From a bacterium (lineage in GTDB: Bacteria > Sysuimicrobiota > Sysuimicrobiia > Sysuimicrobiales > Humicultoraceae), in contig JBGQGY010000025.1 in assembly GCA_041497675.1 (NCBI GenBank), positions 1 through 35,089 on the forward strand: 35,089 bases of DNA, given 5' to 3'. Under the pieces are notes generated by a model. That model made no database searches. It was not told the origin of the DNA and saw nothing but the letters and a program-made list of their open reading frames with translations. The position numbers and the translations under genes are program-made. Of the stretch, positions 4,099 through 35,089 are shown piece by piece. Every line of letters begins with the position of its first letter. The stretch's first letter is position 1.

Positions 4099-5433
4099 AT
4101 GGACCTCGGCCCGCGCGACCGCGAGATCATCGCCGATGTCTGGACATCTTCGCTCTCGTGGCAAACATGCGTGGAGCTCGTCGAGCGCTTTCCCCACCGA
4201 TATGGTGGGCACGTCGAGGAGATCGGCGCGCGTGATTTCGTCGCCGACCGATTCCGCCACCACGGGTTGACCGTTACGTTCGAAGAGTTCCCCTGTCACC
4301 ACTGGCATCCCGGGCGCGCCAGCCTGCACGCGCTTCCCGATGGGCGGGCCCTGGTTCCTATTCCGTGTCTCAACCTGCCGATGAACCCTACGGCGATGAT
4401 CGAGGCCGAGGTCGTCTGGGTCGAGGAGGGGACACAGGCGCAGTACGCGAGTCTCGGCGACCGTATCCGCGACCGCGTCGTGTTGGTCAACAGCCGTTGC
4501 CCCGCCTATTCGCATCGACCCCGCACGTGCCGGCGCGAAAAGTACCTGCAGGCCGTGGAGGGTGGTGCCGCCGGCTTCATCTATATGCGTCACGAGGGCG
4601 GGTTGTTGCCGGAAGTCTACAGCCTCTCGTCCGATGGGCCGGCGCCCGTGCCCGGCGTGAGCGTGACCCGCGAGGCCGGAAGCGCGCTGCTGCGCTACGT
4701 GCGCCGAGGCGCCGCCGTTCGGCTCGACCTTGAAAACCAGATCACGCCCGGGGTGTCGTGGAACATCATTGCCGACCTGCCGGGGCCACCGGGAGCGCCG
4801 GTCATCCTGGTGGGCGCCCACTACGACACGCTGGTGGGGTGCCCCGGCGCGATCGACGACGCATCCGGGGTCGCGGTGCTGCTCGAAGCCGCGCGCGTCC
4901 TGAGCCGGCATCGTGACGTCCTGCGGAGGACGATCCGGTTCGTCGGCTTTGGATTGGAAGAAGGCGGTCTGCAGGGCGCCAAAGCGTACATCGGCGTGCA
5001 CCGCGAGGACTTGAGCGGCGTCGAGTTCATGCTGAACGTCGATGGGGCCGCCTACGGCGCGCCAGAGAAGGGCATCGGGCTGCAGGGCTGGCCGATGCTC
5101 ATTCCTTATTTCAAGGGTCTGGTCGCGGCGATGGGCGAGGAGATGCCGGTTGATGTCTGGGTGACGCCGAACTCAGACATGCACCCGTTCATGGTGGCCG
5201 GGGTGCCCTGCGCCTGGTTTTTCGACATGGGGATGTCACTGGCCAACCTGGGCTGGCCGCACACCGCCGCCGACACGCTCGACAAGGTGTCGCCTCGGGG
5301 GCTGCGGATCACCGCCCTGCAGCTGGCGCGACTCTTGCTGTACATGGCCGCGACTCCGATGCCGGCCGTCACCCGCAGCCGCCAGGAGGTCGACCGGTGG
5401 CTCGCCGAATGGAACCTCACGCCGCGTATCTGA
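4099..5433 (+). CDS. M28-family zinc peptidase/amidohydrolase with PA domain, probably cytoplasmic
   Basis: GAHYDT, GAIDDASGVA, EEGGLQGA, LNVDG, SDMHPF and PHTAADT motifs (Zn ligands H/D/E/D/H); PA-like insert (AVEGGAAGFI); no signal peptide. Confidence 0.9.
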   Translation: MDLGPRDREIIADVWTSSLSWQTCVELVERFPHRYGGHVEEIGARDFVADRFRHHGLTVTFEEFPCHHWHPGRASLHALPDGRALVPIPCLNLPMNPTAMIEAEVVWVEEGTQAQYASLGDRIRDRVVLVNSRCPAYSHRPRTCRREKYLQAVEGGAAGFIYMRHEGGLLPEVYSLSSDGPAPVPGVSVTREAGSALLRYVRRGAAVRLDLENQITPGVSWNIIADLPGPPGAPVILVGAHYDTLVGCPGAIDDASGVAVLLEAARVLSRHRDVLRRTIRFVGFGLEEGGLQGAKAYIGVHREDLSGVEFMLNVDGAAYGAPEKGIGLQGWPMLIPYFKGLVAAMGEEMPVDVWVTPNSDMHPFMVAGVPCAWFFDMGMSLANLGWPHTAADTLDKVSPRGLRITALQLARLLLYMAATPMPAVTRSRQEVDRWLAEWNLTPRI

Positions 5434-5445
5434 GGAGGGGACAGA

Positions 5446-7068
5446 ATGAGCGCAGACCGTAAGGGGGTAACCCGCCGCCAGTTCTTAAAGACGACCGCCG
5501 CGACGGCGGCTGCTGTTGGCGCCGGTCTGGCCGCCCCACGCACGCTGACATGGCCGGGCGTTGGCCCCGTGTTGGCACAGGCGCAGAAGCCGCCCACGCT
5601 CGTCCAGGGCGTCGAGCCTGAGACGCTCGACCCTCACTTCGGCGAGTCGGGCATCATCGGCAACGTGCTCGGCAACGTGATGGAGGCGTTGATCGCCTAC
5701 GACCGCAAGATGCGCCCGCTGCCGTTCCTCGCCGAGTCGTACGAGGTCCTGTCTGACAAGGTGACGTGGCGGTTCAAGCTCCGCCAGGGCATCCGGTTCC
5801 AGAACGGCAAACCTTTCACCGCGGAGGCCGTCAAGTTCACGATCGACCGGACGATGAACGCCGATCTGCGCCGGCAGGGGCTCAACGATCCGTTCCCGGC
5901 TCGATCCGGTGTGACACAGGTGAAGGTCGTCAATGCCAGCACCGTTGATGTCGTGCTGGCGAGGCCCAACATTATCTTGCCGGTGTTCATGTCGTTCCTC
6001 TACATGATGGAACCCGAGTATTATGGCAGCAAGTCCCCGCGCGAGACCTCGGTCGCCCCCATGGGCACCGGGCCCTGGAAGGTCGACGAGTGGATCAAAG
6101 GCGACCGCCTCGCGCTGTCGGCGTTCGACGGCTACTGGCGCGGCGCCCCGCAGATCAAACGAGTCGTGTTCCGGCCGGTACCGGAGAAATCACAGCGCAT
6201 GAACATGCTGATCACCGGCGAGGCCGACATCGCCATCGCGTTGTCGCCGGACGATCTGCCGATCGTCGAACGGGTCAGCAAGCTGCGTGTCTCGATCGCC
6301 CCCGGCAGCCGGCGGATGCACATCGGTATTCCGACCGATTCGCCGAAGTACAAGGATCGTCGCGTGCGGTACGCGCTCAGCCACGCGATCGACTGGGATA
6401 CGCTGTCGAAGGGTCTGCTCGGCCGCCTGACGCCCGAGCGGCGCGCGACCGTGCTGGTGGCGGGCGAATCGTGGGTCAGCCCGCGGATCAAGCCGCTGGA
6501 GTTCAATCGGCAGCGGGCGCGCAGTCTGTTGACCGAAGCCGGGTTTCCGATGAACGAGCGGATCCGGGTCTACACGCCGGTCGGCCGTTATCTCAAAGAC
6601 AAAGAAACCGCCGAAGCGGTCGCCGGACAGTTCCGCGAGATTGGACTGCAGGCCGAAGCCGCCCCACTGGACTGGACGATCTATACGGACAAGATGCGTA
6701 GCCCCGGCGGCATGGATGATCTCTATCTGCTCGGGCTGGGTTCGCGCTTCAACGGCCCGGAGGACCTCAGCATCGTGACGACCGGGCAGATCTGGGACCA
6801 GACCAAGTGGATCACGCATACGCAGAACGGCCCCAAGTTCAACGCGATGTACAAGGAATTGATCGAAACGATCGATGAGAAGAAGCAGCGCGAGATGGCC
6901 TTCCAGATGGAGCAGCTCTTCGTGGAAGAGACGCCCTGGATCAATTTGTGGATCCAGCCCGGCGCGACCGGGGTGAACCGGCGCCTCGATTGGGAAGACT
7001 CGGGCGGCGGCGATCGACTGAACCTGTGGCTGCCGGGCGAACGCGACGTCCGGTTTGCGCCTATCTAA
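5446..7068 (+). CDS. ABC transporter substrate-binding protein, family 5 (Dpp/Opp), Tat-exported
   Basis: TRRQFLK twin-arginine signal ending AQA; PETLDPH, FKLRQGIRFQNG, GTGPWK and RVRYALSHAID motifs; SD gaggagg. Confidence 0.93.
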   Translation: MSADRKGVTRRQFLKTTAATAAAVGAGLAAPRTLTWPGVGPVLAQAQKPPTLVQGVEPETLDPHFGESGIIGNVLGNVMEALIAYDRKMRPLPFLAESYEVLSDKVTWRFKLRQGIRFQNGKPFTAEAVKFTIDRTMNADLRRQGLNDPFPARSGVTQVKVVNASTVDVVLARPNIILPVFMSFLYMMEPEYYGSKSPRETSVAPMGTGPWKVDEWIKGDRLALSAFDGYWRGAPQIKRVVFRPVPEKSQRMNMLITGEADIAIALSPDDLPIVERVSKLRVSIAPGSRRMHIGIPTDSPKYKDRRVRYALSHAIDWDTLSKGLLGRLTPERRATVLVAGESWVSPRIKPLEFNRQRARSLLTEAGFPMNERIRVYTPVGRYLKDKETAEAVAGQFREIGLQAEAAPLDWTIYTDKMRSPGGMDDLYLLGLGSRFNGPEDLSIVTTGQIWDQTKWITHTQNGPKFNAMYKELIETIDEKKQREMAFQMEQLFVEETPWINLWIQPGATGVNRRLDWEDSGGGDRLNLWLPGERDVRFAPI

Positions 7069-7098
7069 GCGTCCACACCGGTCTGACCGGCGCGCAAG

Positions 7099-8016
7099 AT
7101 GACCGCGTACATCCTGCGGCGGTTGTTGCAGACCGTCCTCGTGATCCTCGGGGTCTCGGCGCTGTCGTTTGGGTCGATGTTTTTGTCCGGCGATCCGACG
7201 ATGGTAATGGCGAGCGAATCGTGGACCCGCCAGCAGATCGACGACTTCCGGCACCAGATGGGCTTCGACCGGCCCTGGTTCGTGCAGTACCTGGACTTTC
7301 TCTCTCGCGCGGCCCACGGCGATCTTGGCGTCTCACTTCGTCAGCAGCAGCCGGTCTCGCAGTTGCTCCTCCAACGTGTGCCGGCCACCTTAGAGCTGGC
7401 CGCGGCGGCGATGGCCGTTGCGGTCGGGCTCGGCATTCCCGCGGGCGTAATCGCGGCCACGCGGCGCAACAGCCCCGTTGACCGCAGCCTGATGCTCGGC
7501 GCCTTGTTCGGGCAATCGATGCCCGTGTTCTGGTTGGGTCTGCTGCTGGCGATGATCTTTGCGGTCATGTTGGGCTGGTTTCCCGTGGCCGGGCGCGGCG
7601 GCTGGCAACATCTCGTCCTACCTGCCACGAGCCTCGGGCTTTTTTCGGTCGCGTACAATGCGCGCATGACCCGGTCTGCGGTCCTGGAGACGCTGGGGCA
7701 GGACTACATCCGCACGGCGCAGGCTAAGGGTCTGTCAGCGTTTCGGGTGTTGACGCGGCATGCGTTGCGCAACGCCTTGATTCCGATTGTGACCGTGGCG
7801 GGTCTGCAGTTTGGGAACCTGCTCGGGGGCGCCGTCATCACCGAGACGATCTTCGCCTGGCCCGGGGTCGGGCGTTTGACGATCCAGGCGATCCAGGGCA
7901 AGGACCTGCCGCTGGTGCAGGCGTCGGTCACGTTTTTAGCGACGATCTTTGTGGCGCTGAATCTGGTCATTGATCTGTTCTATGTGGTGCTCGACCCTCG
8001 GGTGAGGCCCCGCTGA
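7099..8016 (+). CDS. ABC transporter permease, DppB/OppB-like
   Basis: YILRRLLQ start, GDLGVS, EAA loop DYIRTAQAKGL, HALRNALIP, C-terminal LDPRVR. Confidence 0.95.
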   Translation: MTAYILRRLLQTVLVILGVSALSFGSMFLSGDPTMVMASESWTRQQIDDFRHQMGFDRPWFVQYLDFLSRAAHGDLGVSLRQQQPVSQLLLQRVPATLELAAAAMAVAVGLGIPAGVIAATRRNSPVDRSLMLGALFGQSMPVFWLGLLLAMIFAVMLGWFPVAGRGGWQHLVLPATSLGLFSVAYNARMTRSAVLETLGQDYIRTAQAKGLSAFRVLTRHALRNALIPIVTVAGLQFGNLLGGAVITETIFAWPGVGRLTIQAIQGKDLPLVQASVTFLATIFVALNLVIDLFYVVLDPRVRPR

Positions 8017-8894
8017 TGGCCGTCGCGGTGGCGCACCAGGCGGTGACCGCGCCAGCGGCAAGACGGCGGCGATGGCCTCCGGTGGCTGTGCTCGGCGCGC
8101 TCGGGTTTCTGGCGGTGCTGGTCGTCGTCGCGCTGTTCGCGCCCGTGCTCGCACCGCACCCACCGGGGCGCGTCGTGATGGGCGAGCGTCTCACCCCGCC
8201 GGTGTTCTCGGGCGGGACCTGGGCACACCCGCTTGGGACGGACTCGCTCGGTCAGGACCTGTTGAGCCGGACCATGTTCGGGGCGCGCGTGTCGCTGCTG
8301 GTCGGCGTCTGCGCGGTGTTGCTCTCGGGCACCATGGGGGTCACGCTGGGGTTGATCTCCGGGTACCGCGGCGGATGGCTGGACGACGTCATCATGCGCA
8401 TCGCGGAGATCCAGCTCGCCTTTCCCGCGATCCTGCTCTACATCGCGGCCATGGCGACGCTGGGCCCGGGGCTCTGGAAGATCATCCTGGTCATTGGGGT
8501 CGTGGGCTGGGTCTCGTATGCGCGGATCGAGCGCGGTGTCGTGCTCGCGGTTCGCGAGCAGGAATACGTGACGGCTGCGCGGGCGATGGGTGCGCCGGTG
8601 AGTTTGATCCTGCGCCGGCACATCTTGCCGAATACGATGGCGCCGATTATTGTGGTGGCGTCCTTTTCGCTGGCGACGACGGTGATTACCGAGGCGTCGC
8701 TGTCGTTCCTCGGGCTGGGTGTGCCGCCGTCGGTGCCCTCGTGGGGCAGCCTGCTCTCGGACGGTCGCGACTACCTACGCCAGGCCTGGTGGATTACCAC
8801 CTTTCCGGGTCTGGCCATCATGGCGACGGTGCTGGCGATCAACCTGATCGGCGACTGGCTACGCGACGCGCTCGATCCACGACTGCGACTCTAG
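8016..8894 (+). CDS. ABC transporter permease, DppC/OppC-like
   Basis: HPLGTDSLGQDLLSR, EYVTAARAMGA, HILPN, EASLSFLGLG, GDWLRDALDPR; TGATG coupling to the upstream permease. Confidence 0.95.
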   Translation: MAVAVAHQAVTAPAARRRRWPPVAVLGALGFLAVLVVVALFAPVLAPHPPGRVVMGERLTPPVFSGGTWAHPLGTDSLGQDLLSRTMFGARVSLLVGVCAVLLSGTMGVTLGLISGYRGGWLDDVIMRIAEIQLAFPAILLYIAAMATLGPGLWKIILVIGVVGWVSYARIERGVVLAVREQEYVTAARAMGAPVSLILRRHILPNTMAPIIVVASFSLATTVITEASLSFLGLGVPPSVPSWGSLLSDGRDYLRQAWWITTFPGLAIMATVLAINLIGDWLRDALDPRLRL

Positions 8895-8909
8895 AGGAGG
8901 CTGGTCCGA

Positions 8910-9560
8910 ATGGAACTCTACGAACTGACCGGTGCCACGGCCGAGGCGATCACGTTTCTGAAGACCGTCTCACCGGCCTGGATCAGCGACGCGCAGGGAT
9001 CGACCGGCGTGATGGCGGCCGAGATCAAACCCGTGTGGCGCGGGGCGCGGTTGTGCGGCCCGGCGTACACCGCGCGGTGTTATCCCGGCAGCATCATCAC
9101 GGTGCACAAGGCGTTGCTCGAAGCGCCTCCGGGGTCGGTCATCGTCGTCGACGGCGGCGGTGATGCGACGGGCGCGATGTTTGGCGAGTTGATGGCCACC
9201 GAGGCGAAGTCGCGCGGTCTGGCCGGCATCGTAGTCGACGCGGCCGTGCGCGACGCCGAGGGGCTGGCCGAGCTGCAGTTTCCGGTGTTTGCGCGTGCGG
9301 TCACGCCGCGTGTGGGGACCAACCGGCGCGTAGGGGCCACGCAGGTCGAGATCGCCTGCGGCGGGGTCGTGGTGCACCCCGGCGACATCGTCGTCGGCAC
9401 CGGCGACGGCGTCGCCGTCATCCCTCGGGGCAACCTGGCGGACGTGGTGACCGGGGTCCAGGCCGTGAGCAAGAAGGAAGCCGACATTCGGGTGCGCATG
9501 GCGAAGGGCGAGCGAGTCGCCGACATCATCGCGATGCGCGGCCTGATCTATCCGCAATAG
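8910..9560 (+). CDS. RraA-family protein / 4-hydroxy-4-methyl-2-oxoglutarate aldolase-like (copy 1)
   Basis: ISDA, CGPAYT, GELMA, VDAAVRD, FPVFAR and GGVVVHPGDIVVG motifs; SD gaggagg. Confidence 0.9.
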   Translation: MELYELTGATAEAITFLKTVSPAWISDAQGSTGVMAAEIKPVWRGARLCGPAYTARCYPGSIITVHKALLEAPPGSVIVVDGGGDATGAMFGELMATEAKSRGLAGIVVDAAVRDAEGLAELQFPVFARAVTPRVGTNRRVGATQVEIACGGVVVHPGDIVVGTGDGVAVIPRGNLADVVTGVQAVSKKEADIRVRMAKGERVADIIAMRGLIYPQ

Positions 9561-9652
9561 GCGGAGTCGTCGACGGCAGGGACCCCGCGCGGCCGGGGAG
9601 AACGGAAGGCGGTAATGTCCCAGTCGCGCCAGGAATCCTGGAGGTGACCGAC

Positions 9653-10705
9653 GTGAATATGACCCTCGTACGCCTGGCGGCCGTCGTGCTGGTCATCGCG
9701 CTATTGTCGAGCGCGCCGGCCCCCGTGGTCAAGGCCCAGTCCAACCAGCTGGTCGTGAACGGGTTCGGGGGCGAGTATGAAGATATCTTCAAGAAGACCC
9801 TCAAAGAGCCATTTGAGCGCCAGTTCAACGCCCGCATCATCTTTGACCCCACGGGTAGCGCCTCGGAGGACTACGCCAAGATCCGGGCCACCCGCGGCGA
9901 CCCGGGGTGGGACGTCGTTGTGATGACCGCGCCCGAAGCCATCCTGGGCTGTAGGGAGAAGTTGCTCCAGCCGATGACCGAGGCCAACATCCCCAACCTC
10001 AAGCAACTGTATCCGGAAGTGCAAAATACCGTCGCACCCTGCGGGGCCGTCCAGGAAATCCAGTACATGAGCCTGATGTACAACACGAACTCCGTGCGAC
10101 CCGCGCCGGATTCATGGAAGGTCTTCTGGGATCCTCGATACAAAGGCCACATCATCATCCCCGACATCGGCAGCATCTTGGCGGTGTACTTCCTGATCAT
10201 GGCATCGTACTCGTACGGTGGCGACGAAAAGAACATCGATCCCGGGTTTGACGCGATCGCGCGCCTGAAGCCGAACGTGACGGCCATTATCCTGTCGTCA
10301 TCGGCGATGATCCCGTATGTCGAGCGTGAGGAAGTGTGGCTGCTCCCGTACTGGGACGGTCGCGCGCACTACTACCGCGGCCGCGGCCTCCCGGTCGACT
10401 TTGTGATCCCGAAAGAAGGCAGCATCTTCCTGTTGGGCGCGCTCAGCGTGCCAATCGGAGCGAAGAACAAGGCGCTGGCGTACAAGTTCATCGACTGGTG
10501 GCTCTCTGCGGATGTCCAGCGGAAGTGGGCCATGGCCTACACCGTGGGTAGCGCGCGCGGCGGGCTCTCGTTCCCCACCGAGCACCGGCAAGCGCACATC
10601 AGCAGCATCGCTCAGGTCCGGAAGTTCAAGAACGTCGACCCCCTGTTTATCGGCGAGAAGCGCTCCGACTGGGCCGAGCGGTGGACGAAGGTGATCGCGC
10701 GCTGA
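9653..10705 (+). CDS. ABC transporter substrate-binding protein, PotD/PotF-like (polyamine/opine/phosphonate class)
   Basis: Sec-type signal ending VKA-Q; GFGG, LMYNT, PDSWKVFWDPRYKG, IPKEG and AYKFIDWWLS motifs; start placed at GTG 9653 from SD GGAGG at 9640-9644 (ORF track starts 9644). Confidence 0.88.
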   Translation: MNMTLVRLAAVVLVIALLSSAPAPVVKAQSNQLVVNGFGGEYEDIFKKTLKEPFERQFNARIIFDPTGSASEDYAKIRATRGDPGWDVVVMTAPEAILGCREKLLQPMTEANIPNLKQLYPEVQNTVAPCGAVQEIQYMSLMYNTNSVRPAPDSWKVFWDPRYKGHIIIPDIGSILAVYFLIMASYSYGGDEKNIDPGFDAIARLKPNVTAIILSSSAMIPYVEREEVWLLPYWDGRAHYYRGRGLPVDFVIPKEGSIFLLGALSVPIGAKNKALAYKFIDWWLSADVQRKWAMAYTVGSARGGLSFPTEHRQAHISSIAQVRKFKNVDPLFIGEKRSDWAERWTKVIAR

Positions 10706-11559
10706 GGCCGGCGCGGCGGCCTCCGGCGGTGCTGGTGCTTCTGGCGCCGTCGCTGATCTATCTGATGGTGCTGTTTTTCGTGCCGCTGGGTATCTTGGCC
10801 GCTGTCAGCGTGCTCAAGTTCCACAATGGCCTGATCGTCCGCGAATTGACCCTCGAGCATTACGTCAAGTTTCTGACCGACCCGTTCTATCTCGGCATCA
10901 TGTGGAACACTCTGCGTGTGGCGCTCATCGTGTCCGCGGTCACCACGCTTTTGGGCTATCCCGTTGCCTACGTGCTGGCACGCACGCAGTCGCGGTGGAA
11001 GGGGCTCCTGATCGCGCTGGTGCTCGCGCCTGAACTGTCGGGTGTGGTGCTTCGGACCTACGGGTGGCTGGTGATCCTTGAGGATCGCGGCGTCATCAAC
11101 ACGCTCCTGCGGTCGTGGGGGCTCATCGCGGCGCCGATCCGGCTCGTCCACAACTATACGGGTGTGATTATCGGGCTCACGCACGTGCTGCTGCCCTTTG
11201 CCATCCTGGCGCTCATGGCCTCGATCCAGGCCATCGATCCGACCCTCGAGCAGGCGGCGATGAATCTGGGCGCGGGCCGCGTGCGCACATTCCTGCGAAT
11301 AACCCTCCCGCTGTCCGCCCCCGGGGTGCTGGGTGCCTTCTTTCTGACCTTCAGCCTATCGGCCAGCGCGTATGCGACACCCGCCATCTTGGGCGGCAAG
11401 GGCGTCGAAGTGATGGCCACGATGATCTACACGCAATTGCTCTATATCCTCAACTGGCCGTTCGCGGCGGCGCTCTCGGTGGCGCTCATGGCCGTGGTCC
11501 TGGTGACGATGTTCGCGTCGGCGCGTCTTGTTGGCCGGATGAGTGGGGTGTTCCAGTGA
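10681..11559 (+). CDS. ABC transporter permease, PotB-like
   Basis: LLGYPVAY, VVLRTYGW, LEQAAMNLGA (EAA loop), TPAILGG, NWPFAAALS. Confidence 0.93.
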   Translation: MDEGDRALRPARRPPAVLVLLAPSLIYLMVLFFVPLGILAAVSVLKFHNGLIVRELTLEHYVKFLTDPFYLGIMWNTLRVALIVSAVTTLLGYPVAYVLARTQSRWKGLLIALVLAPELSGVVLRTYGWLVILEDRGVINTLLRSWGLIAAPIRLVHNYTGVIIGLTHVLLPFAILALMASIQAIDPTLEQAAMNLGAGRVRTFLRITLPLSAPGVLGAFFLTFSLSASAYATPAILGGKGVEVMATMIYTQLLYILNWPFAAALSVALMAVVLVTMFASARLVGRMSGVFQ

Positions 11560-12365
11560 GCCAGGTGAAGCGTCACCTGCCACGCTGGAGCCTTTTGGCG
11601 ATCGTGGGAATCATTTACGCGTACATGTTCCTCCCGATTGTGGTCGTGGTGCTCACATCGCTCAATCCAGGTCAGTATCTTCAGTTGCCGCCGCGCGGAT
11701 TCTCGCTTCGATGGTACGCGGCGGCGCTCAGCCCGGACTGGCTGGAGCCGTTCCGGGTCAGCCTGATGCTGGCGCTCTTGACGTCGGCCGTCGCGACGGC
11801 GCTCGGCCTGCCGGCGGCCTTCGCGCTCGTCCGCCACCGCTTTTACGGGCGTGATGCGATCAACGCGCTGCTCTTGTCACCGATCTCCCTGCCGGCGATC
11901 GTGAGCGGCGTGGCCATCCTGCAGTTCTTGTCGCTGGCGGGTCTGCACAGTCTGATCGGCTTCAACGCGCTGTTGCTGGCGCATACGGCCATTACGGTGC
12001 CCTACGCCATCCGCACCATCGCCATCAGCCTCCACGGCTTCGACCGCTCGCTGGAACAGGCGGCGGCGAACCTGGGCGCCACGCCGTGGCGCACGCTGCG
12101 GCACGTGACGCTGCCGCTGATCAAGCCCGGGCTGTTCGCCGGAATGGTGTTCGCCTTCATCGTATCGTTCAACAACGTGCCGGTCTCGCTATTTCTAGTG
12201 CGGCCGGGGATGATCACGCTGCCCATCCGCATCCTGAATTATCTGGAGTACCGCTTCGATCCGTCGCTGGCGGCGGTGAACATGCTGTCGCTGGTGGTCA
12301 TCCTGATTATTGTGGCCGCCGCCGAACGCGCAGCGGGCTTCACGAAATTCGTCTACGGCCGATGA
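11556..12365 (+). CDS. ABC transporter permease, PotC-like
   Basis: GTGA overlap with the previous stop; PPRGFSLRWY, LEQAAANLGA, FAFIVSFNN, TLPIRI. Confidence 0.93.
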   Translation: MSQVKRHLPRWSLLAIVGIIYAYMFLPIVVVVLTSLNPGQYLQLPPRGFSLRWYAAALSPDWLEPFRVSLMLALLTSAVATALGLPAAFALVRHRFYGRDAINALLLSPISLPAIVSGVAILQFLSLAGLHSLIGFNALLLAHTAITVPYAIRTIAISLHGFDRSLEQAAANLGATPWRTLRHVTLPLIKPGLFAGMVFAFIVSFNNVPVSLFLVRPGMITLPIRILNYLEYRFDPSLAAVNMLSLVVILIIVAAAERAAGFTKFVYGR

Positions 12366-18478: not shown

Positions 18479-18483
18479 ATCGG

Positions 18484-19443: not shown

Positions 19444-19450
19444 GAAGCGC

Positions 19451-22589: not shown

Positions 22590-22600
22590 CAGGGACGCCG

Positions 22601-23049: not shown

Positions 23050-23080
23050 CGGGAGGCAGGAGTTCGGACGCCGACAGCCG

Positions 23081-23101
23081 ATACTAATGTTATACAATAT
23101 G
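23081..23101 (+). promoter_or_regulatory. AT-rich candidate -10 element and GntR-type operator at the gntR start
   Basis: ATACTAATGTTATACAATATG in a GC-rich background; near-palindrome TGTTATACA at 23088-23096; TAATGT and TACAAT hexamers. Confidence 0.5.
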
Positions 23102-23890: not shown

Positions 23891-23922
23891 GCGTCAGTGG
23901 GCGATATGAGGGAGGGGATCGA

Positions 23923-24075
23923 ATGCGACGTCGGTTGATCACCTCGCTGTTGATCATCCTGTTCTTGGGGGTGCCGTCGGCAATCGGTGGACCGGCGCCC
24001 CAGGCCGGCGGCGCCATCGTCGGCGGTGAGGTCGACCTGACCGGGCGGTTGACCGACGTGCGGTTCAGGCCGTGA
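23923..24075 (+). pseudogene. 50-aa ORF: signal peptide plus short tail, probably an internally deleted substrate-binding protein
   Basis: Strong SD gagggagggg; MRRRLITSLLIILFLGVPSAIG then PAPQAGG (compare PAPTKGG of 26711) then LTDVRFRP (compare ERDVRFAPI of 5446); GTGA overlap with the next gene. Confidence 0.55.
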
Positions 24076-25001: not shown

Positions 25002-25033
25002 GGTGCCTGTGTCGAGGGTCGGTGAGGTGATGC

Positions 25034-26632: not shown

Positions 26633-26710
26633 ACCACAAGGAGGGGGGGAACGCCGCGTTCCGGTTGGGCGCTCAGCAGTCGACGACATTCTCGTTGTAG
26701 AAGGAGGATA

Positions 26711-28318: not shown

Positions 28319-28328
28319 GAGGGGCAGG

Positions 28329-29087
28329 ATGGAGCCGACGCGCGAATCGCTGACCCGTGGGCTCTCCTCCGACTGGCGTGATCGGCTGCGGGAGTGGCCG
28401 CTACCACTCCCGCAGTTCACCCTCGATCCGCAGCGGACGGCGCTCGTCATCGTCGATATGCAGTACGGCTCGGTCGACCCGGACACCGGGGTGGGGCCGT
28501 ACCTTCGACAGCACTACCCTGTGGTCGCCGAGTACTACTACGGCCGGGTTCGCGACGCCGTGATTCCCAACACGCAGCGGCTCCTGGGCGCTTTCCGGAA
28601 GATCGGCCGCCCCGTCGTCTACCTGACGATCGGGTTCGCCCTTCCAGATCGGAGCGACGGTCTCGGTCTCCTCCGACAGATCGACGACGACCTCAAGGCC
28701 CGGATGGCCGAGGGCCCCCTTGTGCGGCGGGGGAGCCGGGCGAACACCGTGGTCGACCCCCTGGCGCCCAGGGACGGTGAGTTGGTGATCAACAAGACCT
28801 CGATGGGCGCGTTCAACTCCACGTCGATCGATCAAACCCTGCGCAACCTGGGGATCACGACGCTGGTGGTCGTCGGTGTTTCGACCGAGTGTTGCGTGGC
28901 GACGACTGCGCGGGACGGCGGAGACCGCGGGTTCCACGTTCTGCTGGTCGAAGACGCCTGCAGCGCGGTCACCCCATACCTCCAGGAGAGCAGCCTGGTC
29001 ACGTTTGCGGCGATGTTCGGACGGGTGGCGACGACTGAGGAGACGCTGGCAGAACTGACGGCGAAGACACGGGCATCGGCCCGCTGA
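28329..29087 (+). CDS. Isochorismatase-family cysteine hydrolase (amidase)
   Basis: TALVIVDMQ (Asp), VINKTSMGAF (Lys), GVSTECCVATTARD (Cys): complete catalytic triad. Confidence 0.92.
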   Translation: MEPTRESLTRGLSSDWRDRLREWPLPLPQFTLDPQRTALVIVDMQYGSVDPDTGVGPYLRQHYPVVAEYYYGRVRDAVIPNTQRLLGAFRKIGRPVVYLTIGFALPDRSDGLGLLRQIDDDLKARMAEGPLVRRGSRANTVVDPLAPRDGELVINKTSMGAFNSTSIDQTLRNLGITTLVVVGVSTECCVATTARDGGDRGFHVLLVEDACSAVTPYLQESSLVTFAAMFGRVATTEETLAELTAKTRASAR

Positions 29088-29090
29088 TCC

Positions 29091-30014
29091 GTGGGGCGCT
29101 ATCTGGCCTATCGGCTGTTCCAGGCCACGCTTGTCGTCCTCGGCGCCATGGTCATGGTCTTTATGATGCTCCATCTGATCCCCGGCGATCCGGTCCAGGT
29201 CCTGTTTGGTGATGCGCCCGTCCCCAAAGAGCAGGTGGAGGCCGTCCGCCACCAACTCGGGTTGGACCTGCCGCTGGATCAGCAGTTTCTGCGCTATGTG
29301 CGGCAGACGGTGAGTGGAGACCTGGGCCGGTCTCTCAAGACCAACCGGCCGATCGTCGCCGACCTGCGCAGGGCGATCCCCTATACCGCCAGCCTGGCCG
29401 TGACGGCGATGCTGCTCGCGGTGGGCGGGGGGACTCTCTGTGGAATCGTCTCGGCGGTGCGTCACAATACCTGGCTCGACAATGCCGTCACGACGGTCGC
29501 GCTCGCCGGGATCTCGCTCCCGACGTACTGGACGGGTCTCTTGCTGATCTGGGCGTTCAGCATCAAGTTCAACTGGTTTCCCATCACCGGTCAGGGGACG
29601 GTGCGTCACCTGGTCCTGCCGGCCATTACGCTGGGCTGGTATGCGGGGGCGATTCTCACGCGTCTGGTCCGCAGCGGCATGCTCGAGGTCCTGCGCCAGG
29701 ACTACGTGAGGACGGCGCAGGCGAAGGGGCTCTCGACCCGGACGGTGCTGGTGCAGCACGCATTGCGAAACGCGCTGATCCCGGTGATCACGGTGGCCAG
29801 CATTCAGCTTGGGACCATGCTCGGCGGCGCGGTGGTTGTGGAAACCGTGTTCGCGCGCGACGGCGTTGGCCGGATGCTCGTGAACGGGATCTTGCAGAAG
29901 GATTTCCCGACGGTCCAGGGCGCTGTACTCCTGGTGGCCATTGTCTATAGCGTAACCAATCTGGTCGCCGACGTGTCGTACGGCTTCATTGACCCGCGGA
30001 TTCGCTACACGTAG
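29091..30014 (+). CDS. ABC transporter permease, DppB/OppB-like
   Basis: PGDPV, GDLGRS, DYVRTAQAKGL, HALRNALIP, IDPRIRY. Confidence 0.95.
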   Translation: MGRYLAYRLFQATLVVLGAMVMVFMMLHLIPGDPVQVLFGDAPVPKEQVEAVRHQLGLDLPLDQQFLRYVRQTVSGDLGRSLKTNRPIVADLRRAIPYTASLAVTAMLLAVGGGTLCGIVSAVRHNTWLDNAVTTVALAGISLPTYWTGLLLIWAFSIKFNWFPITGQGTVRHLVLPAITLGWYAGAILTRLVRSGMLEVLRQDYVRTAQAKGLSTRTVLVQHALRNALIPVITVASIQLGTMLGGAVVVETVFARDGVGRMLVNGILQKDFPTVQGAVLLVAIVYSVTNLVADVSYGFIDPRIRYT

Positions 30015-30022
30015 CGTGCGGC

Positions 30023-30895
30023 ATGGGCCCGACAACGCTCCCAGCATCGAGCCCGCCGCGCCGCCCCGGCCGCTTTGCGGTGCTCCGGCGTCTCAGCCCC
30101 GGTGGGAAGGCATCGCTGGTGATCTTCCTGTTGTTCTGCGTACCGCTGGTCGTGCCGCAGCTGCTGGCGCCGTACGACCCCACGGCCATTTCATACAGTG
30201 AAATCTTCCAGGGCCCGAGCGGGCACCACTGGCTCGGCACGGACCAGTACGGGCGTGACATCCTAAGCCGGCTCATCCACGGGACTCGTGTCTCAATGAG
30301 TCTAGGCCTGGTATCCGTCTCGCTCTCGCTTGCCCTGAGCCTGCCGCTGGGGATTGCCGCCGGATTCTATCGCGGGCGATTCGAAACCGTCGTCATGCGG
30401 TTGCTCGATATCCTGATGGCATTTCCGGGGATCCTGCTGGCCCTCATCGTGGTGGCCATTCTCGGGCCCGGTTTGGCGAATGCCATGGTGGCCGTCGGTA
30501 TCGGCGAGGCGCCGGCCTACACGCGGGTCGTCCGGTCGGCCGTGCTGACGATCCGCGAAAATCTCTACGTGGAGTCGGCTCGGGCGGTTGGCGCCGGTGA
30601 CGGCCGGACGCTCTGGCGCCACGTGCTGCCGAACGTGTTGCAGCCCATCATTGTGATCTCAACCGTCGGGTTTGCGGTCGCGATCATCATCGGGTCCTCG
30701 CTGGGGTTCCTGGGGCTGGGCGCCCAGCCCCCGACGGCCGAGTGGGGAACCATGGTGAGCGAGGGTCGGACTTATCTTCGGTCCCGCTGGTGGATTTCGA
30801 CCTTCCCCGGCGCCACGATCGGCGTGGCCGTCATCGCGCTGAACGTGCTGGGAGACGCCCTGAGAGACGTACTCGACCCCCGGTTGAGGCGCTAG
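30023..30895 (+). CDS. ABC transporter permease, DppC/OppC-like
   Basis: HWLGTDQYGRDILSR, YVESARAVGA, HVLPN, GDALRDVLDPRLRR. Confidence 0.95.
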   Translation: MGPTTLPASSPPRRPGRFAVLRRLSPGGKASLVIFLLFCVPLVVPQLLAPYDPTAISYSEIFQGPSGHHWLGTDQYGRDILSRLIHGTRVSMSLGLVSVSLSLALSLPLGIAAGFYRGRFETVVMRLLDILMAFPGILLALIVVAILGPGLANAMVAVGIGEAPAYTRVVRSAVLTIRENLYVESARAVGAGDGRTLWRHVLPNVLQPIIVISTVGFAVAIIIGSSLGFLGLGAQPPTAEWGTMVSEGRTYLRSRWWISTFPGATIGVAVIALNVLGDALRDVLDPRLRR

Positions 30896-30961
30896 GATGT
30901 CGCAGGGATGCCGTAGGTGGAATACGAAGCAACAGATGTTTCCTTTCCCATGGAGGCGACT

Positions 30962-31747
30962 GTGACGCGCCACCTCGCCCGCATGACCTGGACGCAGGTG
31001 GCCGCCGCATTAACGCGCCGCCCGGTCGTCCTGATACCCTTGGGGGCTCTGGAGCCGCACGGGCCGCACATGCCCATGGGACTGGACTTCCTGGTGGCGG
31101 AGCACATGGCCGAAGCGGCGGCCGAACAGACCGATTCGCTGATCGCCCCCACGCTGCCCCACGGCTACGGCGTCTCCTCCGCCGACTTTCCGGGTGCTGT
31201 GACGCTAAGGGCAGAGACGCTGATCGCCCTCGTCGAGGACACCTTGCGTAGCCTCGTGCGTCACGGCGTGACTCACGTGCTGCTGGTCGACAACCACCGC
31301 AGCAACAACCCCTATGTCGAGGTCGCGGCCCGCCGTATCCGCGCCGAGACCGGTGTGCTCGTCGGGTCGTTCTTCCCCTGGGGCACCATCATCAACCTGG
31401 CGCCGCCGCTCTACAAAGACTTCGCCAACGTGGTCGGACACGGCGGCGAACCCGAGACGTCGGTGGCCCTCCATCTCTACCCGGATTGGGTTGACATGAC
31501 GCAGGCCCGACCCGACACATTTGCGCCGTTTCACGGTCAGGCAATGAGATCGGCCGGCGAGCCTGCGCTGGGCAAGGCCGCGGCGCACATTTGGGTCACG
31601 AGTCGGGAGATTTCCGACACCGGTATCAAGGGCGACCCGACGATCGCCGACCCCGCGCGGGGCCGGACCCTTGTTGAGGGAGCAGTCCAAGAGCTCGTAC
31701 GCGTCATCGAGGCGTTCCACCGGCTCCCAGCCGGGATGAAGTCGTGA
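30962..31747 (+). CDS. Creatininase-family metallo-amidohydrolase
   Basis: MTW, PLGALEPHGPHMPMGLD, FPGAVTL, DNHRSN, HGGEPETS, GIKGDP; start placed at GTG 30962 from SD GGAGG at 30952 (ORF track starts 30917). Confidence 0.9.
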   Translation: MTRHLARMTWTQVAAALTRRPVVLIPLGALEPHGPHMPMGLDFLVAEHMAEAAAEQTDSLIAPTLPHGYGVSSADFPGAVTLRAETLIALVEDTLRSLVRHGVTHVLLVDNHRSNNPYVEVAARRIRAETGVLVGSFFPWGTIINLAPPLYKDFANVVGHGGEPETSVALHLYPDWVDMTQARPDTFAPFHGQAMRSAGEPALGKAAAHIWVTSREISDTGIKGDPTIADPARGRTLVEGAVQELVRVIEAFHRLPAGMKS

Positions 31748-31784
31748 CGAAGACCCAACTCGAAGCTCCCACTGGAGGAACAGG

Positions 31785-32486
31785 ATGAACGATCGTGTCA
31801 CCGTCGAGTTCAAACTCCGTTTATCAATCACCCGGCCCGATCCGTCGTCGTATGCCCGGTTCCACGAGTACGCCACCGCCAACATCTCCGATGCCTTTTT
31901 CAAGCGGCAGACGCTGCCGCACGACATCAAGCCGGTGTACACCGGCTGCCCCCGCATCGTCGGTCCGGCGATCACCGCGCAGGTCACACCGGGCGACGAG
32001 CTGCTTCCGCTAAAGGCCATCGAGATCGCTAAACCCGGCGACGTCATCGTGGTCGTCGGCGCCTACTCGCCGCGATTCAGCCTGTGGGGCGGTGTGATGA
32101 GCACGATGGCGAAGGCGCGGGGCGTCGCGGGTCTGATCACCGACGGACTGGTGCGCGACGTCGACGAGACGCGGCGCGCCGGCTTCGCGATCTACGCGAC
32201 GGGGCTGACGCCCTGCGCGCCGTGCATGAACGTGCCGCCGGGTGAGTTGAACTATCCGATCGTATTCGGCACCGCCGAGATCCGGCCGGGCGACCTGATG
32301 GTCGCCGACGAGGACGGGGTCGTGTGCGTGCCCCGAGAGCAGATCGCCGCCGTCGACGCCGCCGTGCAAGAGCGCATGGCCAAAGAGCAGGGCTGGCACA
32401 AAGAGATCCAGCGGACCCGCGCTATGATCCTGAAGGACGCGGTCGACAAACTGCTCGCGGCGCGCTCGACGCAGATCGAGCCGTAG
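31785..32486 (+). CDS. RraA-family protein / HMG aldolase-like (copy 3)
   Basis: TANISDA, VGPAIT, PGDVIVV, WGGVMS, TDGLVRD, PGDLMVADEDGV; SD ggagga. Confidence 0.9.
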   Translation: MNDRVTVEFKLRLSITRPDPSSYARFHEYATANISDAFFKRQTLPHDIKPVYTGCPRIVGPAITAQVTPGDELLPLKAIEIAKPGDVIVVVGAYSPRFSLWGGVMSTMAKARGVAGLITDGLVRDVDETRRAGFAIYATGLTPCAPCMNVPPGELNYPIVFGTAEIRPGDLMVADEDGVVCVPREQIAAVDAAVQERMAKEQGWHKEIQRTRAMILKDAVDKLLAARSTQIEP

Positions 32487-32494
32487 AGGGTGGA

Positions 32495-33448
32495 GTGAGG
32501 GCGTACCTGATCCGGCGGATGGTCACTGCCCTGGGACTGCTGTGGGTGGTGGCATCGGTCGTCTTCTTTTCAATCTATCTGCTGCCCGGCGATCCCGCGC
32601 ACGTCATCCTGGGCGGGATGGATGCCAACCCGACACCGGAGCAGCTCCAGGCGGTGCGCGAGAAACTGGGGCTCGACCGTCCGGCGGTGACGCGCTACGT
32701 CGAGTGGATCACCCACGTGCTGCGCGGTGACTTTGGCCGCTCGCTCATTACCGACCGCCCCGTGGCCGCGGATCTCGTCGTGCGTCTGGGGCGTACGCTG
32801 CAGCTGATCGTCCCCGCGATCAGCATCGCGGTCGCGGTCGGCGTTCCGGCCGGTGTGTTTGCCGCCCGCCGCCGGGGTACGGTGTACGATCCGCTGGCGT
32901 CCGCCGTGACCCTGCTCGGCTTTTCCGTGCCCGTGTTTGTGGTCGGTCCGATGCTCGTGTACGTGTTCGCGCTGTGGCTCAAGGTGCTGCCATCGGGCGG
33001 GTACGTGCACTTCGCCGAGCAGCCGGCAGCATACCTCACGTATCTGGTGATGCCGGCGCTGGCGCTGGCCGCCGGCCCCATGGCAACCACGATGCGCATG
33101 GCGCGCTCCGCGGTGCTCGAACAACTGCCGCTCGACTACGTGCGCACGGCGCGCAGTAAGGGACTGTCAGACCCAGGCGTCTTGGGCCACCATGTGCTGC
33201 GCAACGCCCTGCTGCCGGTGCTCACCATCGTGGGGCTGCAGATCGGCGCGATGTTCGCCGGCAGCGTCATCGTCGAAGCTATTTTTAGCTGGCCGGGGAT
33301 GAACGCGTTCTTGCTGCAGGCCATCGGGGTGCGGGACTACCCGGTGATCCAGGCCGTGGTCTTCACCGCCTCAGGGCTGTTCATCACGATCAACTTCATG
33401 ACCGACGTCGGCTATGCAGTCCTCGACCCTCGCATTCGCTACGCATAG
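32495..33448 (+). CDS. ABC transporter permease, DppB/OppB-like
   Basis: GTG 32495 (RAYLIRRMV); PGDPA, GDFGRS, DYVRTARSKGL, HVLRNALLP, LDPRIRY. Confidence 0.94.
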   Translation: MRAYLIRRMVTALGLLWVVASVVFFSIYLLPGDPAHVILGGMDANPTPEQLQAVREKLGLDRPAVTRYVEWITHVLRGDFGRSLITDRPVAADLVVRLGRTLQLIVPAISIAVAVGVPAGVFAARRRGTVYDPLASAVTLLGFSVPVFVVGPMLVYVFALWLKVLPSGGYVHFAEQPAAYLTYLVMPALALAAGPMATTMRMARSAVLEQLPLDYVRTARSKGLSDPGVLGHHVLRNALLPVLTIVGLQIGAMFAGSVIVEAIFSWPGMNAFLLQAIGVRDYPVIQAVVFTASGLFITINFMTDVGYAVLDPRIRYA

Positions 33449-34292: not shown

Positions 34293-34306
34293 CAGGAGGG
34301 ATAGCG

Positions 34307-35089
34307 ATGCGTATGCACAGAACGATGGCCGCCCTCGTCGTCATTCTCGGCTTGATCGGCCTGCCTGCGTTCGGTCAACAACCGGCCGGGCAACCGTCCG
34401 CGGATGCCTGCAAGGTCCGCGGAGGCACGCTCAAGTTTGGTTTGTCCCGCGACGCGATCGGGCTGGACCCGCACCTCAACTACGGCGTCACGAGCTCGTC
34501 GGTGCAGGGCAACGTCTACGACACGCTCGTGCAATACGACGTCCAGGGTCGGCTCTCGCCGGCGCTGGCCGAATCGTGGACGCAGCCGCAGCCGACCCTC
34601 TACGTGCTCAAACTGCGGCGGAACGTGACGTTTCACGACGGCAGCCCCTTTAGCGCCGCCGACGTCCTCTATAGCCTGCAGCGGATTCGCGATCCCAACA
34701 CCCGCGCCTACCGCCAGCGCGACCTGGAGACACTGTTGGAGAATGCGACCGCGCCGGACCCGTACACGGTTGAGTTGAGGCTCAAGAGTCCCAGCGCGAC
34801 GTTCATGGACATGCTGGCCCGCCCCGAGATGTACATCATTAGCAAGCGGTGGAGCGAGGGCGGCGGTGATGTTCGTAAGACCGCCATTGGGACCGGCCCC
34901 TTCCGGCTCACAAGTTATGAGTTCGGGGTCCGCTACATCTTCGACCGGAACCCCACCGCGTGGAGCCCGCCGTGCGTGGATCGCGTGGAGATGTACACGT
35001 ATCAGGACGACCGCGCGCGCGTCAACGCCCTCAAGAGCGGGCAGGTGGATCTCATCGAGTACCTGCCGTGGCAAGAGGTGGAGTACTTC
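34307..35089 (+). CDS. ABC transporter substrate-binding protein, family 5, 3'-truncated by the window edge (absent from the ORF track)
   Basis: SD aggagg then ATG 34307; MRMHRTMAALVVILGLIGLPAFG signal; RGGTLKFG, GLDPH, VYDTLV, KLRRNVTFHDG, IGTGPFRL; frame open to the last base. Confidence 0.92.
   Translation, partial: MRMHRTMAALVVILGLIGLPAFGQQPAGQPSADACKVRGGTLKFGLSRDAIGLDPHLNYGVTSSSVQGNVYDTLVQYDVQGRLSPALAESWTQPQPTLYVLKLRRNVTFHDGSPFSAADVLYSLQRIRDPNTRAYRQRDLETLLENATAPDPYTVELRLKSPSATFMDMLARPEMYIISKRWSEGGGDVRKTAIGTGPFRLTSYEFGVRYIFDRNPTAWSPPCVDRVEMYTYQDDRARVNALKSGQVDLIEYLPWQEVEYF

Follow-up and report, generated by a model that had tools for sequence, protein, structure and literature searches.

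Importers of the dipeptide (Dpp) and oligopeptide (Opp) type are known to work with a dedicated hydrolase, for example GsiABCD of E. coli with gamma-glutamyltransferase (GGT) and dppABCDE of B. subtilis with the D-aminopeptidase DppA. This family of ATP-binding cassette (ABC) importers needs two ATPases with an oligo_HPY domain, while shared "multitask" ATPases are described for sugar ABC importers, e.g. MsiK in Streptomyces. Creatinine and hydantoin degradation employs creatininase, creatinase (M24), N-carbamoylsarcosine amidase (isochorismatase family), N-methylhydantoinase (HyuA/B), hydantoin racemase and carbamoylase; we know of no described set of this kind that includes an RraA-like gene or a Dpp-type importer. 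To our knowledge, most members of the very large RraA-like family have no role assigned beyond aromatic ring-cleavage pathways and RNase E regulation. Here we analyze a bacterial DNA stretch of 35,089 nucleotides (contig JBGQGY010000025.1 of assembly GCA_041497675.1, hereafter the window), in which RraA-like genes stand among Dpp-type importers and amide hydrolases. We consider it an evenly balanced call that its positions 4099-35089 hold a cluster of catabolic operons (four intact, one decayed) that varies in content and in which each operon has its own substrate, with ATPase-less importers and with RraA as an integral part of three of them.

The window is a complete contig (C25) of a genome (G000) of 3.97 Mb in 272 contigs and 98.6% completeness. 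The closest named relative is Candidatus (Ca.) Fervidifonticultor quartus of Ca. Sysuimicrobiota (CSP1-3), whose RraA3 (see below) is 81% identical. Open reading frames (ORFs) of the window were scanned against Pfam and NCBIfam, and some gene starts were refined by reading the start codon and ribosome-binding site (RBS). Genes ilvN-leuA-leuCD (1-3883) precede module 1. The rest of the window (4099-35089) contains four intact Dpp/Opp-type importer gene sets and one decayed set, three RraA-like genes, one homologue of 4,5-dihydroxyphthalate decarboxylase (PhtD-like) and, beside the importers, cytoplasmic hydrolases: M28, three GGT-like, creatininase-family, isochorismatase-like and FmdA-like. 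An earlier note, written from the letters of this DNA, had named these genes, and both profile collections place each of them as it claimed. Its statement that oxygenases, dehydrogenases and CoA ligases are absent also stands, as these families gave no match in 4099-35089. Further, the note knew of no described pathway with such a layout, and we found no paper pairing creatininase or these hydrolases with RraA.

The three RraA genes belong to three modules. Module 1 (4099-9560, forward strand, intergenic gaps of 0-30 nt) is headed by an M28-family metallopeptidase without signal peptide (4099-5433; PF04389, E 4.6e-33), whose orthologue stands before SBP1-B1-C1-RraA1 in locus L016 and in genomes L024-L026 of family f5. 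There follow a Dpp/Opp-type substrate-binding protein with a twin-arginine signal (SBP1, 5446-7068; PF00496, E 1.8e-69; NCBIfam signal model 25.7 bits, cut-off 16.7; nearest solved structure YliB/GsiB, 1uqw, E 8.5e-41) and permeases B1 (7099-8016) and C1 (8016-8894; both PF00528, PF19300) with no ATPase gene after them. RraA1 (8910-9560, 216 aa; PF03737, E 7.5e-44, 150 bits; motif VDAAVRD) starts 15 nt past C1.

Module 2 lies on the reverse strand and is headed by RraA2 (19451-20131, 226 aa; PF03737, E 4.3e-39, 134.6 bits; RBS at start 20131; motif IDAGARD). The PhtD-like gene (18484-19443) begins 7 nt past it; the product has a binding-protein-like fold and aligns with PDB 9jp7 (E 5.8e-46, residues 6-303); in Pfam it yields a weak NMT1 match only. 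Downstream are permeases B2 (~18478-17537) and C2 (~17540-16629; together 16629-18478; PF00528, PF12911, PF19300; starts inferred from Pfam envelopes) and a binding protein with a Sec-type signal (SBP2, 15038-16588; PF00496, E 1.5e-84; start codon and RBS read; nearest solved structure DppA, E 2.6e-42). The module ends with GGT2, a cytoplasmic GGT-family Ntn hydrolase without signal peptide (13425-15041; PF01019, E 5.3e-111). Module 3, on the forward strand, consists of a creatininase-family metal hydrolase (30962-31747; PF02633, E 9.3e-62, 209 bits), RraA3 (31785-32486, 233 aa; PF03737, E 2.4e-40, 138.6 bits; 3noj, E 1.8e-25), permeases B5 (32495-33448, starting 8 nt past the RraA3 stop) and C5 (33414-34292; both PF00528) and a Sec-type binding protein preceded by an AGGAGG RBS and truncated by the contig end (SBP5, 34307-35089; PF00496, E 1.9e-42).

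All three RraA proteins exceed the gathering score of PF03737 (24.5 bits) and stay under the cut-off of the LigK/PcmE equivalog (TIGR02798, 304.5 bits), with 147.6, 139.2 and 116.9 bits for RraA1, RraA2 and RraA3, respectively. They are also under the cut-off of PRK09262, and none of the eight RraA copies of the genome reaches the LigK cut-off (best 147.8 bits). For the 4-hydroxy-4-methyl-2-oxoglutarate/4-carboxy-4-hydroxy-2-oxoadipate (HMG/CHA) aldolase of P. putida, the accessible portion of one report describes Arg-123 as essential and as stabilizing the pyruvate enolate, and Asp-124 and Glu-199 as metal-binding (PMC5065237). The equivalents of these residues are retained in RraA3, as aligned to 3noj, and in RraA1 and RraA2 too; all three keep what pyruvate-enolate chemistry requires, a point in favour of the earlier note's interpretation. 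A protocatechuate 4,5-cleavage or phthalate pathway was considered and rejected: the RraAs include no LigK equivalog, there is no oxygenase in 4099-35089, and LigB (PF02900) has no match across the organism's own genome at its 98.6% completeness. Protocatechuate 4,5-cleavage or gallate genes do not make up the surroundings of these RraAs either.

The window RraAs are mutually 31-39% identical and, judged by their phylogeny, are old paralogues from three separate clades. In a FastTree phylogeny of 173 non-identical RraA-like sequences, pooled from all genome and metagenome sources examined, the RraA1 clade has 10 members (support 99), the RraA2 clade 5 (100) and the RraA3 clade 21 (98); two more clades are the C17-type, with 13 (+2) members (86), and a Thr-variant, with 6 (+1) members (99). 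Each of the five includes members from both Ca. Sysuimicrobiota and Thermomicrobiales, and all five keep importer and hydrolase neighbours in both groups. Their last common ancestor coincides with the root of the sampled tree, so that clades lacking this context lie interspersed among them. Local tandem duplication as the source of the three modules was rejected, given the low identity of the RraAs and the position of the best permease paralogues on other contigs. The earlier note spoke of a module repeated three times: three RraA modules are indeed present, but they carry old paralogues of separate clades, and module content varies between relatives.

We asked how these genes are distributed over the genome. 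Six-frame phmmer searches with window proteins gave 113 SBP_bac_5-type, 95 DppB-type and 100 DppC-type ORFs, along with 17 creatininase, 10 GGT and 8 RraA-like ones. Positions of the families were taken from these six-frame matches because our crude gene caller, based on GC content at third codon positions, missed genes (B2, one PotD-type permease and GntR in the window). With about 95 Dpp importers and frequent rearrangement of modules, RraA genes might come to stand beside importers with no functional meaning, and the density of importers is high enough to make this worth weighing: for 6.1% (200/3260) of the called non-Dpp genes the nearest Dpp component is no farther than 300 bp away, and for 15.4% no farther than 3 kb. 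The RraA genes exceed both values, with four of eight within 300 bp (binomial P 8e-4) and six of eight within 3 kb (P 3e-4), although these P values overstate the case because the paralogues are not independent. Intergenic gaps of 3-40 nt likewise speak against mere coincidence. We conclude that the link between RraA and the importers is not chance, and coincidental neighbourhood, already disfavoured, seems to us very improbable. Creatininase and GGT genes of the same genome are within 300 bp of a Dpp component in 8/17 and 5/10 cases, respectively.

RraA genes on other contigs were inspected for their neighbours. On C17 the context is an HpcH-type aldolase, SBP-B-C, GGT, creatininase and RraA; on C57 it is GGT, SBP-B-C, RraA, an M55 D-aminopeptidase and isochorismatase. 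On C29 (5679-11280), hydantoinase/oxoprolinase A and B genes (HyuA/B) are divergent from an Asp/Glu/hydantoin racemase, RraA and a CN_hydrolase. RraA genes on C42 and C64 have unrelated neighbours. M24 genes with Creatinase_N occur on C40 and beside other Dpp loci.

The pairing of an importer with a hydrolase, as such, is nothing special here. We drew 20 Dpp loci at random from other contigs and inspected neighbours within 3.5 kb. A clear peptidase or amidohydrolase neighbour was present at 10 of them (one further locus was ambiguous), from the families M24, M20, M28, M42, S58, Amidohydro_1, creatininase, ceramidase-like, deacetylase and beta-lactamase; the remaining loci had SDR, enolase-family, cupin or aminotransferase neighbours. 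An RraA gene was found at none of the 20. Importer plus hydrolase is therefore the general plan of the genome, not one peculiar to the window, and the RraA link is the special part. In the accessible portions of two CSP1-3 papers, peptide/oligopeptide uptake and gains of peptide/nickel transporter genes receive passing mention only (PMC11604079, PMC11962464).

The association extends over the phylum. In a sample of 61 genomes, whose tallies include one unpublished genome (G007) used for no other result, RraA-like genes occur in 39 and the creatininase family (PF02633) in all 61, with up to 19 copies. Twenty regions were picked by RraA Pfam score or by several RraA matches per contig, and 24 RraA-like genes were counted in them, each scoring 60 bits or more over 130 residues or more (three copies of L027 were dropped by this filter). 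Dpp components lie within 3 kb of 18 of these genes; creatininase accompanies 10 and GGT 7. An operon of seven genes, SBP-isochorismatase-B-C-GGT-creatininase-RraA, divergent from a GntR/FCD regulator, is shared by L032, L033 and L040, with a variant in L041. The f5 genomes L023-L026 carry the run M28-SBP1-B1-C1-RraA1-GGT2-SBP2-B2-C2, and beside it an RraA3-like gene, a creatininase-RraA-M55 unit and a PhtD-like gene, that is, the gene set of the window in another order.

The same gene sets are found in a second phylum. A scan of the genome collection with RraA3 found four Thermomicrobiales/Chloroflexia loci at 44-46% identity, and creatininase flanks RraA in all four. The SBP5/B5/C5-type importer is present in each of the three loci having a downstream flank; some of the four also hold GGT or an M20 peptidase and a LacI regulator, and an ATPase is absent from all of them. 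Among 121 Thermomicrobiales genomes, 12 have an RraA3 orthologue (at least 68% identical to the protein of L022); within 1.5-kb flanks, a creatininase gene is adjacent in 12/12 and an SBP5-type gene is visible in 8/12. Six weaker matches comprise three loci with C17-type RraA and creatininase and/or permeases, one locus (L168) with GGT, an RraA2-type gene and a PhtD-like gene, and two with a luciferase-like neighbour only. L170, which extends L168, harbours five RraA-like genes, three Dpp-type importers, GGT and a PhtD-like gene within 20 kb and no ATPase; the RraA2-type gene is paired with the PhtD-like gene there as in the window. When B5 is compared with three Thermomicrobiales genomes, the creatininase-RraA cassette supplies the top-scoring permease every time, at 54-56% identity.

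This bears on coincidence as well, since the same partners are kept at 43-45% RraA3 identity in genomes whose LeuA is 51-55% identical. From these neighbourhoods we judge RraA3 to be a conserved partner of creatininase and the B5-C5-SBP5 importer. The similarity of the cassette proteins (RraA3 43-45%, B5 54-56%) does not stand out from that of LeuA. The cassettes therefore do not seem to be recent imports, and horizontal transfer from Thermomicrobiales in recent times is not supported; the argument applies to recent, not to old, transfer. The earlier note named a lack of recurrent co-localization of RraA with amidohydrolases and importers as what would refute it, and this refutation fails, since such recurrence is observed on C17, C57 and C29, in other families of the phylum and in Thermomicrobiales. 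Recurrence in a second phylum makes it probable that these gene sets encode pathways, so far undescribed, for degrading nitrogen compounds after import.

Elsewhere the association stops. RraA matches were obtained in 29 of 201 evenly sampled Chloroflexota genomes (30 loci), and none of the 29 loci outside G061 has creatininase or Dpp genes in its 1.5-kb flanks. In three Chloroflexota loci (L146, L147, L150) the RraA-like gene is beside or between hydantoinase/oxoprolinase A and B genes. A metagenome scan with RraA2 kept 80 loci, of which only the near-identical relatives L043 and L044 share the window context. Among relatives at 33-45% identity, Dpp is within 3 kb in 2/74 metagenome sequences, again L043 and L044, and 65/74 have none of the counted families nearby; this is a point for coincidence. 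The Pfam scan of 124 ORFs in 16 such loci found no SBP_bac_5 importer; it found TRAP, TctC/TctA and MFS transporters, one sugar-type ABC system, Amidohydro_2, redox enzymes and NeuB/ATP-grasp clusters. A GntR(FCD)-RraA-Ldh_2-AFOR (aldehyde ferredoxin oxidoreductase)-(SDR)-cupin set recurs in L048, L053 and L057, with creatininase after it in L048 and L057. These organisms have 45-58% GC, and the set forms a second, redox-rich meeting place of RraA and creatininase. Three RraA-like genes lie within ~3.5 kb in L046 (7161-10657), with aconitase X large and swivel subunits, a class III aminotransferase and an FAD oxidoreductase, and three in tandem beside a TRAP transporter in L052 (9965-12060).

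Close relatives of the organism differ by whole modules. L043 matches the window at 94% nucleotide identity on either side of a gap: it has nothing corresponding to 21885-31772, and its GGT3 is joined directly to RraA3. A whole module has been gained or lost here at strain level, in a block of 9.9 kb that spans the gene fragments, GntR, module 4 and creatininase; rearrangement of this kind would fit coincidental neighbourhood. L017 goes from the leu operon directly to RraA1, an isochorismatase gene and RraA3-B5-C5-SBP5, without any of the window's intervening material, and L016 has leuACD, M28-SBP1-B1-C1, GGT, RraA1 and RraA3-B5-C5. From these module-level differences it follows that the window is an accretion zone, not a designed triple repeat. 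Its backbone, as read from the aligned relatives, evidently runs from the leu operon through RraA1 to RraA3-B5-C5-SBP5. RraA1 and RraA3 are 22 kb apart in the window because of inserted modules. Genes of these two types are adjacent in L016 (9257-10699) and separated by one gene in L017 (8478-10696); in the Thermomicrobiales locus L174 (5613-9227) they are divergent across a LacI gene.

The inserted material includes module 4, on the forward strand. It consists of an FmdA/AmdA-family amidase (24072-25001; PF03069, E 3e-58; FmdA model 133.8 bits, cut-off 500), GGT4, a cytoplasmic GGT-family hydrolase (25034-26632; PF01019, E 2.6e-113), a Dpp-type binding protein with a Sec-type signal (SBP4, 26711-28318; PF00496, E 2.3e-86; TIGR04028 260.9 bits, cut-off 468.5; PDB 5u4o, E 1.8e-62), an isochorismatase-family cysteine amidohydrolase (28329-29087; PF00857, E 1.7e-39; top NCBIfam models BiuH and RutB, both far under their cut-offs) and permeases B4 (29091-30014) and C4 (30023-30895; both PF00528, PF19300) without ATPase. 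Module 3 begins 21-66 nt after module 4, and the boundary between them is not evident because the two make a single co-directional run with gaps of 3-78 nt.

The decayed module lies upstream, also on the forward strand. Its head is GGT3, a GGT-family hydrolase divergent from RraA2 (20287-21888; PF01019, E 2e-107). Remnants of the lost part (21879-23034) follow, a C-terminal SBP fragment (21879-22589; profile positions 225-366 of 368 in Pfam) and an N-terminal isochorismatase fragment (22631-23034), which are 68% and 72% identical to SBP4 and the isochorismatase of module 4, respectively. Then comes a GntR/UTRA (HutC-type) regulator (22982-23890; PF00392, PF07702). The metagenomic relative L044, at ~80% nucleotide identity, has an intact operon GGT3-SBP-isochorismatase-B-C-GntR with GntR as the last gene, and compared with it by blastn the window misses ~1.0 kb (5´ part of SBP) and ~2.1 kb (3´ end of isochorismatase and both permeases). 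We read the GGT3 block as a decayed fifth module and, by the identity of its fragments, as a paralogue of module 4, the only such module in the window.

One system of the region stands apart. Between modules 1 and 2, on the forward strand, is a complete PotD-type ABC importer with SBP, two permeases and an ATPase with TOBE domain (9644-13435; PF13343/PF13416, PF00528, PF00005 and PF08402; PotD model 90.3 bits, under its NCBIfam cut-off). It is unrelated to the RraA modules. Its ATPase (12086-13435) is the sole ABC ATPase of the region.

No Dpp-type ATPase gene (PF08352 or Dpp-type PF00005) was found by Pfam in the window, and none of the four Dpp/Opp sets, each of one SBP_bac_5 protein and two BPD_transp_1 permeases, has its own oligo_HPY ATPases. 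Elsewhere in the genome, six contigs bear a total of 11 oligo_HPY (DppD/F) matches, and all but one of these are grouped in five pairs (C5, C9, C67, C70, C140), so that about 95 permease pairs face five DppDF pairs. An adjacent ABC ATPase is absent at 82 of the 88 loci with both permeases, 48 of these 82 being farther than 1.5 kb from a contig end. Matches to SBP outnumber those to oligo_HPY in the same manner in the relatives G047 (73 vs 7), G063 (77 vs 6), G064 (105 vs 9) and G017 (33 vs 9) and in G061 of Thermomicrobiales (34 vs 2).

The next question is what the modules take up and degrade. All four binding proteins carry export signals (twin-arginine type in SBP1), as seen from their N-termini and the signal model, and the N-termini of M28, creatininase, the GGTs, the other hydrolases and the RraAs show no signal peptide; GGT2, GGT3 and GGT4 open directly with the conserved domain, with no hydrophobic leader. 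Solved GGT small subunits align from residue 357 of GGT4 onward, and T357, the Thr nucleophile, is invariant in GGT2, GGT3, GGT4 and the copy on C17. The three GGTs match PF01019 at 360-380 bits and score 320.2, 299.3 and 334.8 bits with the gamma-glutamyltransferase equivalog TIGR00066, all under its cut-off of 357.85. The creatininase-family protein behaves similarly, with 115 bits for TIGR04448 (cut-off 235), 103.8 for MftE (172) and 63.5 for IolN (245). Its alignment to 3a6g retains E, H, D and H at the positions of metal ligands; in P. putida creatininase we take the binuclear site to be bound by Glu34, His36, Asp45 and His120.

In the simplest case, all this would be ordinary scavenging of peptides, gamma-glutamyl compounds or glutathione, with the RraAs as generic oxaloacetate decarboxylases that feed Asp/Asn carbon to pyruvate. 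The nearest solved binding proteins, glutathione-binding YliB/GsiB, DppA and NikA, fit this explanation, and so do M28, M55, M20 and GGT, classical peptide-trimming families beside many Dpp loci (10/20 above). Ligand class was not assigned from the solved relatives, since all these matches are distant (1uqw for SBP1, for instance, at E 8.5e-41), and every match of binding proteins and GGTs to characterized ones is under its NCBIfam equivalog cut-off. The GGTs of the window are cytoplasmic, unlike the canonical enzyme of bacteria, which resides in the periplasm. Peptide-trimming enzymes do not include amidases of the creatininase, isochorismatase and FmdA types or a PhtD-like decarboxylase, and a generic decarboxylase needs no five clades faithful to their own importer and hydrolase partners across two phyla. 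We therefore hold plain scavenging to be unlikely.

We suggest instead that each cassette serves a dedicated route. The exported binding protein would take a small nitrogen compound, say a peptide-like, gamma-glutamyl or cyclic-amide one, and the ATPase-less permeases would presumably depend for power on the few DppDF pairs found in other parts of the genome. In the cytoplasm, the M28, GGT-like, creatininase-family, isochorismatase-like or FmdA-like hydrolases would cut C-N or amide bonds. Import followed by hydrolysis, as the earlier note had it, fits the signals on the binding proteins and their absence from the hydrolases. The most likely role of the RraA-like lyase would be to cleave or decarboxylate a 2-oxo-acid product to pyruvate, and in module 2, RraA2 might act together with the PhtD-like non-oxidative decarboxylase. 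Retro-aldol cleavage or decarboxylation of a hydrolysis product, proposed in the earlier note as well, is an inference. In its full form, which we offer tentatively and as somewhat doubtful, the proposal says that a creatininase-family hydrolase and an RraA-like Mg-dependent lyase are the conserved core of an undescribed redox-free route, in which ring opening or deacylation of an imported cyclic-amide or peptide-derived compound may yield an oxo-acid that is then split to pyruvate. The route would have diversified into five or more cassettes of paralogous genes, which have GGT-like, isochorismatase-like, M28/M55 and PhtD-like partners and borrow a handful of ATPases, in thermophilic Ca. Sysuimicrobiota and Thermomicrobiales.

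Several observations weigh against this proposal. Firstly, the window has no aminotransferase or dehydrogenase, and therefore the oxo-acid would have to come directly from hydrolysis, or from enzymes encoded elsewhere. This is the weakest link; the source might be an amide of a 2-oxo acid, a residue that forms an enamine or the product of a ring opening. Secondly, Asn71, His75, Thr145 and Lys147 of the P. putida aldolase pocket correspond to Glu, Leu, Cys and Asn in RraA3 (by manual count), and its substrate must therefore be other than HMG/CHA. Thirdly, partners are not constant: none of the counted families is near six of the 24 RraA genes of the phylum sample, and the gene upstream of RraA3 in close relatives is creatininase, GGT3, RraA1 or isochorismatase. 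In L027 (16134-19125), three RraA-like genes are accompanied by HIBADH, Ldh_2, aldehyde and alcohol dehydrogenases and a non-Dpp permease. The redox-free character claimed by the earlier note thus holds within the window only, as other RraA loci of the genome and the phylum are near SDR, Ldh_2 and aldehyde dehydrogenase genes. Promoter and terminator consensus scans of 3800-35089 gave counts at shuffle level and no site between modules; operons are not defined by them. Finally, all six assigned members of the Thr-variant clade, including the copies on C57 and C29, have Thr in place of the catalytic Arg. Since this clade occurs in operons of the same kind, the cassette RraAs cannot all share one chemistry. 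The HIBADH-RraA-Ldh_2 set of L027, it may be added, is present in a Sysuimicrobiota genome.

The Thr-variant clade raises the question whether RraA-like proteins are catalytic here at all. They could be regulatory or structural partners of the hydrolases or transporters, as E. coli RraA is for RNase E. A whole clade lacking the essential Arg, the tandem position of the Thr copies of L170 after RraA1-type genes and the adjacency of creatininase and RraA in 12/12 orthologous loci would all be expected of such partners. The RraAs of the window, for their part, retain Arg, Asp and Glu, score 83.7, 45.5 and 66.2 bits (RraA1-3) with the RNase E regulator model NF006875, whose cut-off is 136, and have 216-233 aa against the 161 positions of that model. 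A purely non-catalytic role is in our view quite improbable, and we retain the lyase as the likelier function of the window proteins. Thr-variant genes are located at C57:19180-19845, C29:5679-6365 and L170:5329-5928 and 17113-17703, and also in L023 and L025; in L170, a Thermomicrobiales locus, they stand in tandem straight after RraA1-type genes. This arrangement suggests mixed oligomers of catalytic and non-catalytic paralogues.

The cassettes are real, recurrent and uncharacterized, and offer an entry point both to the function of RraA-like proteins and to ATPase sharing on a large scale. RraA accompanied by a Dpp-type importer and a creatininase-family hydrolase, or by the GGT, isochorismatase or PhtD-like variants of this set, points to a job of RraA different from those described. 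One binding protein and one or two hydrolases per cassette are convenient handles for finding the substrates. The genome is also an extreme case of ABC importers without their own motors, and one may ask in what way about 95 pairs of permeases could be driven by five pairs of ATPases. The two features together shed light on how uncultured bacteria of hot springs and the subsurface may live on dissolved organic nitrogen.

Compared with known systems, the RraAs share fold, family and Arg123/Asp124/Glu199 with HMG/CHA aldolases (LigK, GalC and 3NOJ of P. putida F1). They differ in their scores (116-148 bits vs 304.5), in the altered pocket of RraA3 and in having importers and amide hydrolases, not ring-cleavage enzymes, as neighbours. 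The product of 18484-19443 is homologous over residues 6-303 to 4,5-dihydroxyphthalate decarboxylase of the phthalate-to-protocatechuate step. Unlike in the phthalate pathway, its gene stands between RraA2 and permeases, with no phthalate dioxygenase, dehydrogenase or protocatechuate-cleavage genes nearby. With creatinine and hydantoin degradation the loci share the enzyme families that surround RraA genes (window, C29, C40), but the window creatininase is distant from that model (TIGR04448, 115 bits vs 235). As in systems served by MsiK, many sets of SBP and permeases lack an ATPase and few ATPase genes are present in the genome; here the family is the peptide/nickel (Dpp/Opp) one, the ratio is about 95 permease pairs to five ATPase pairs, and the sharing itself is presumed. 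The closest likeness in layout is to the Gsi and dpp systems, in which the genes for a binding protein and its two permeases are joined by one for a hydrolase of peptides or gamma-glutamyl compounds, and sister cassettes even hold genes of the M55 DppA type. Unlike Gsi and dpp, the window sets are devoid of ATPases and their GGTs are cytoplasmic, and RraA-like, creatininase, isochorismatase and PhtD-like genes are added to them.

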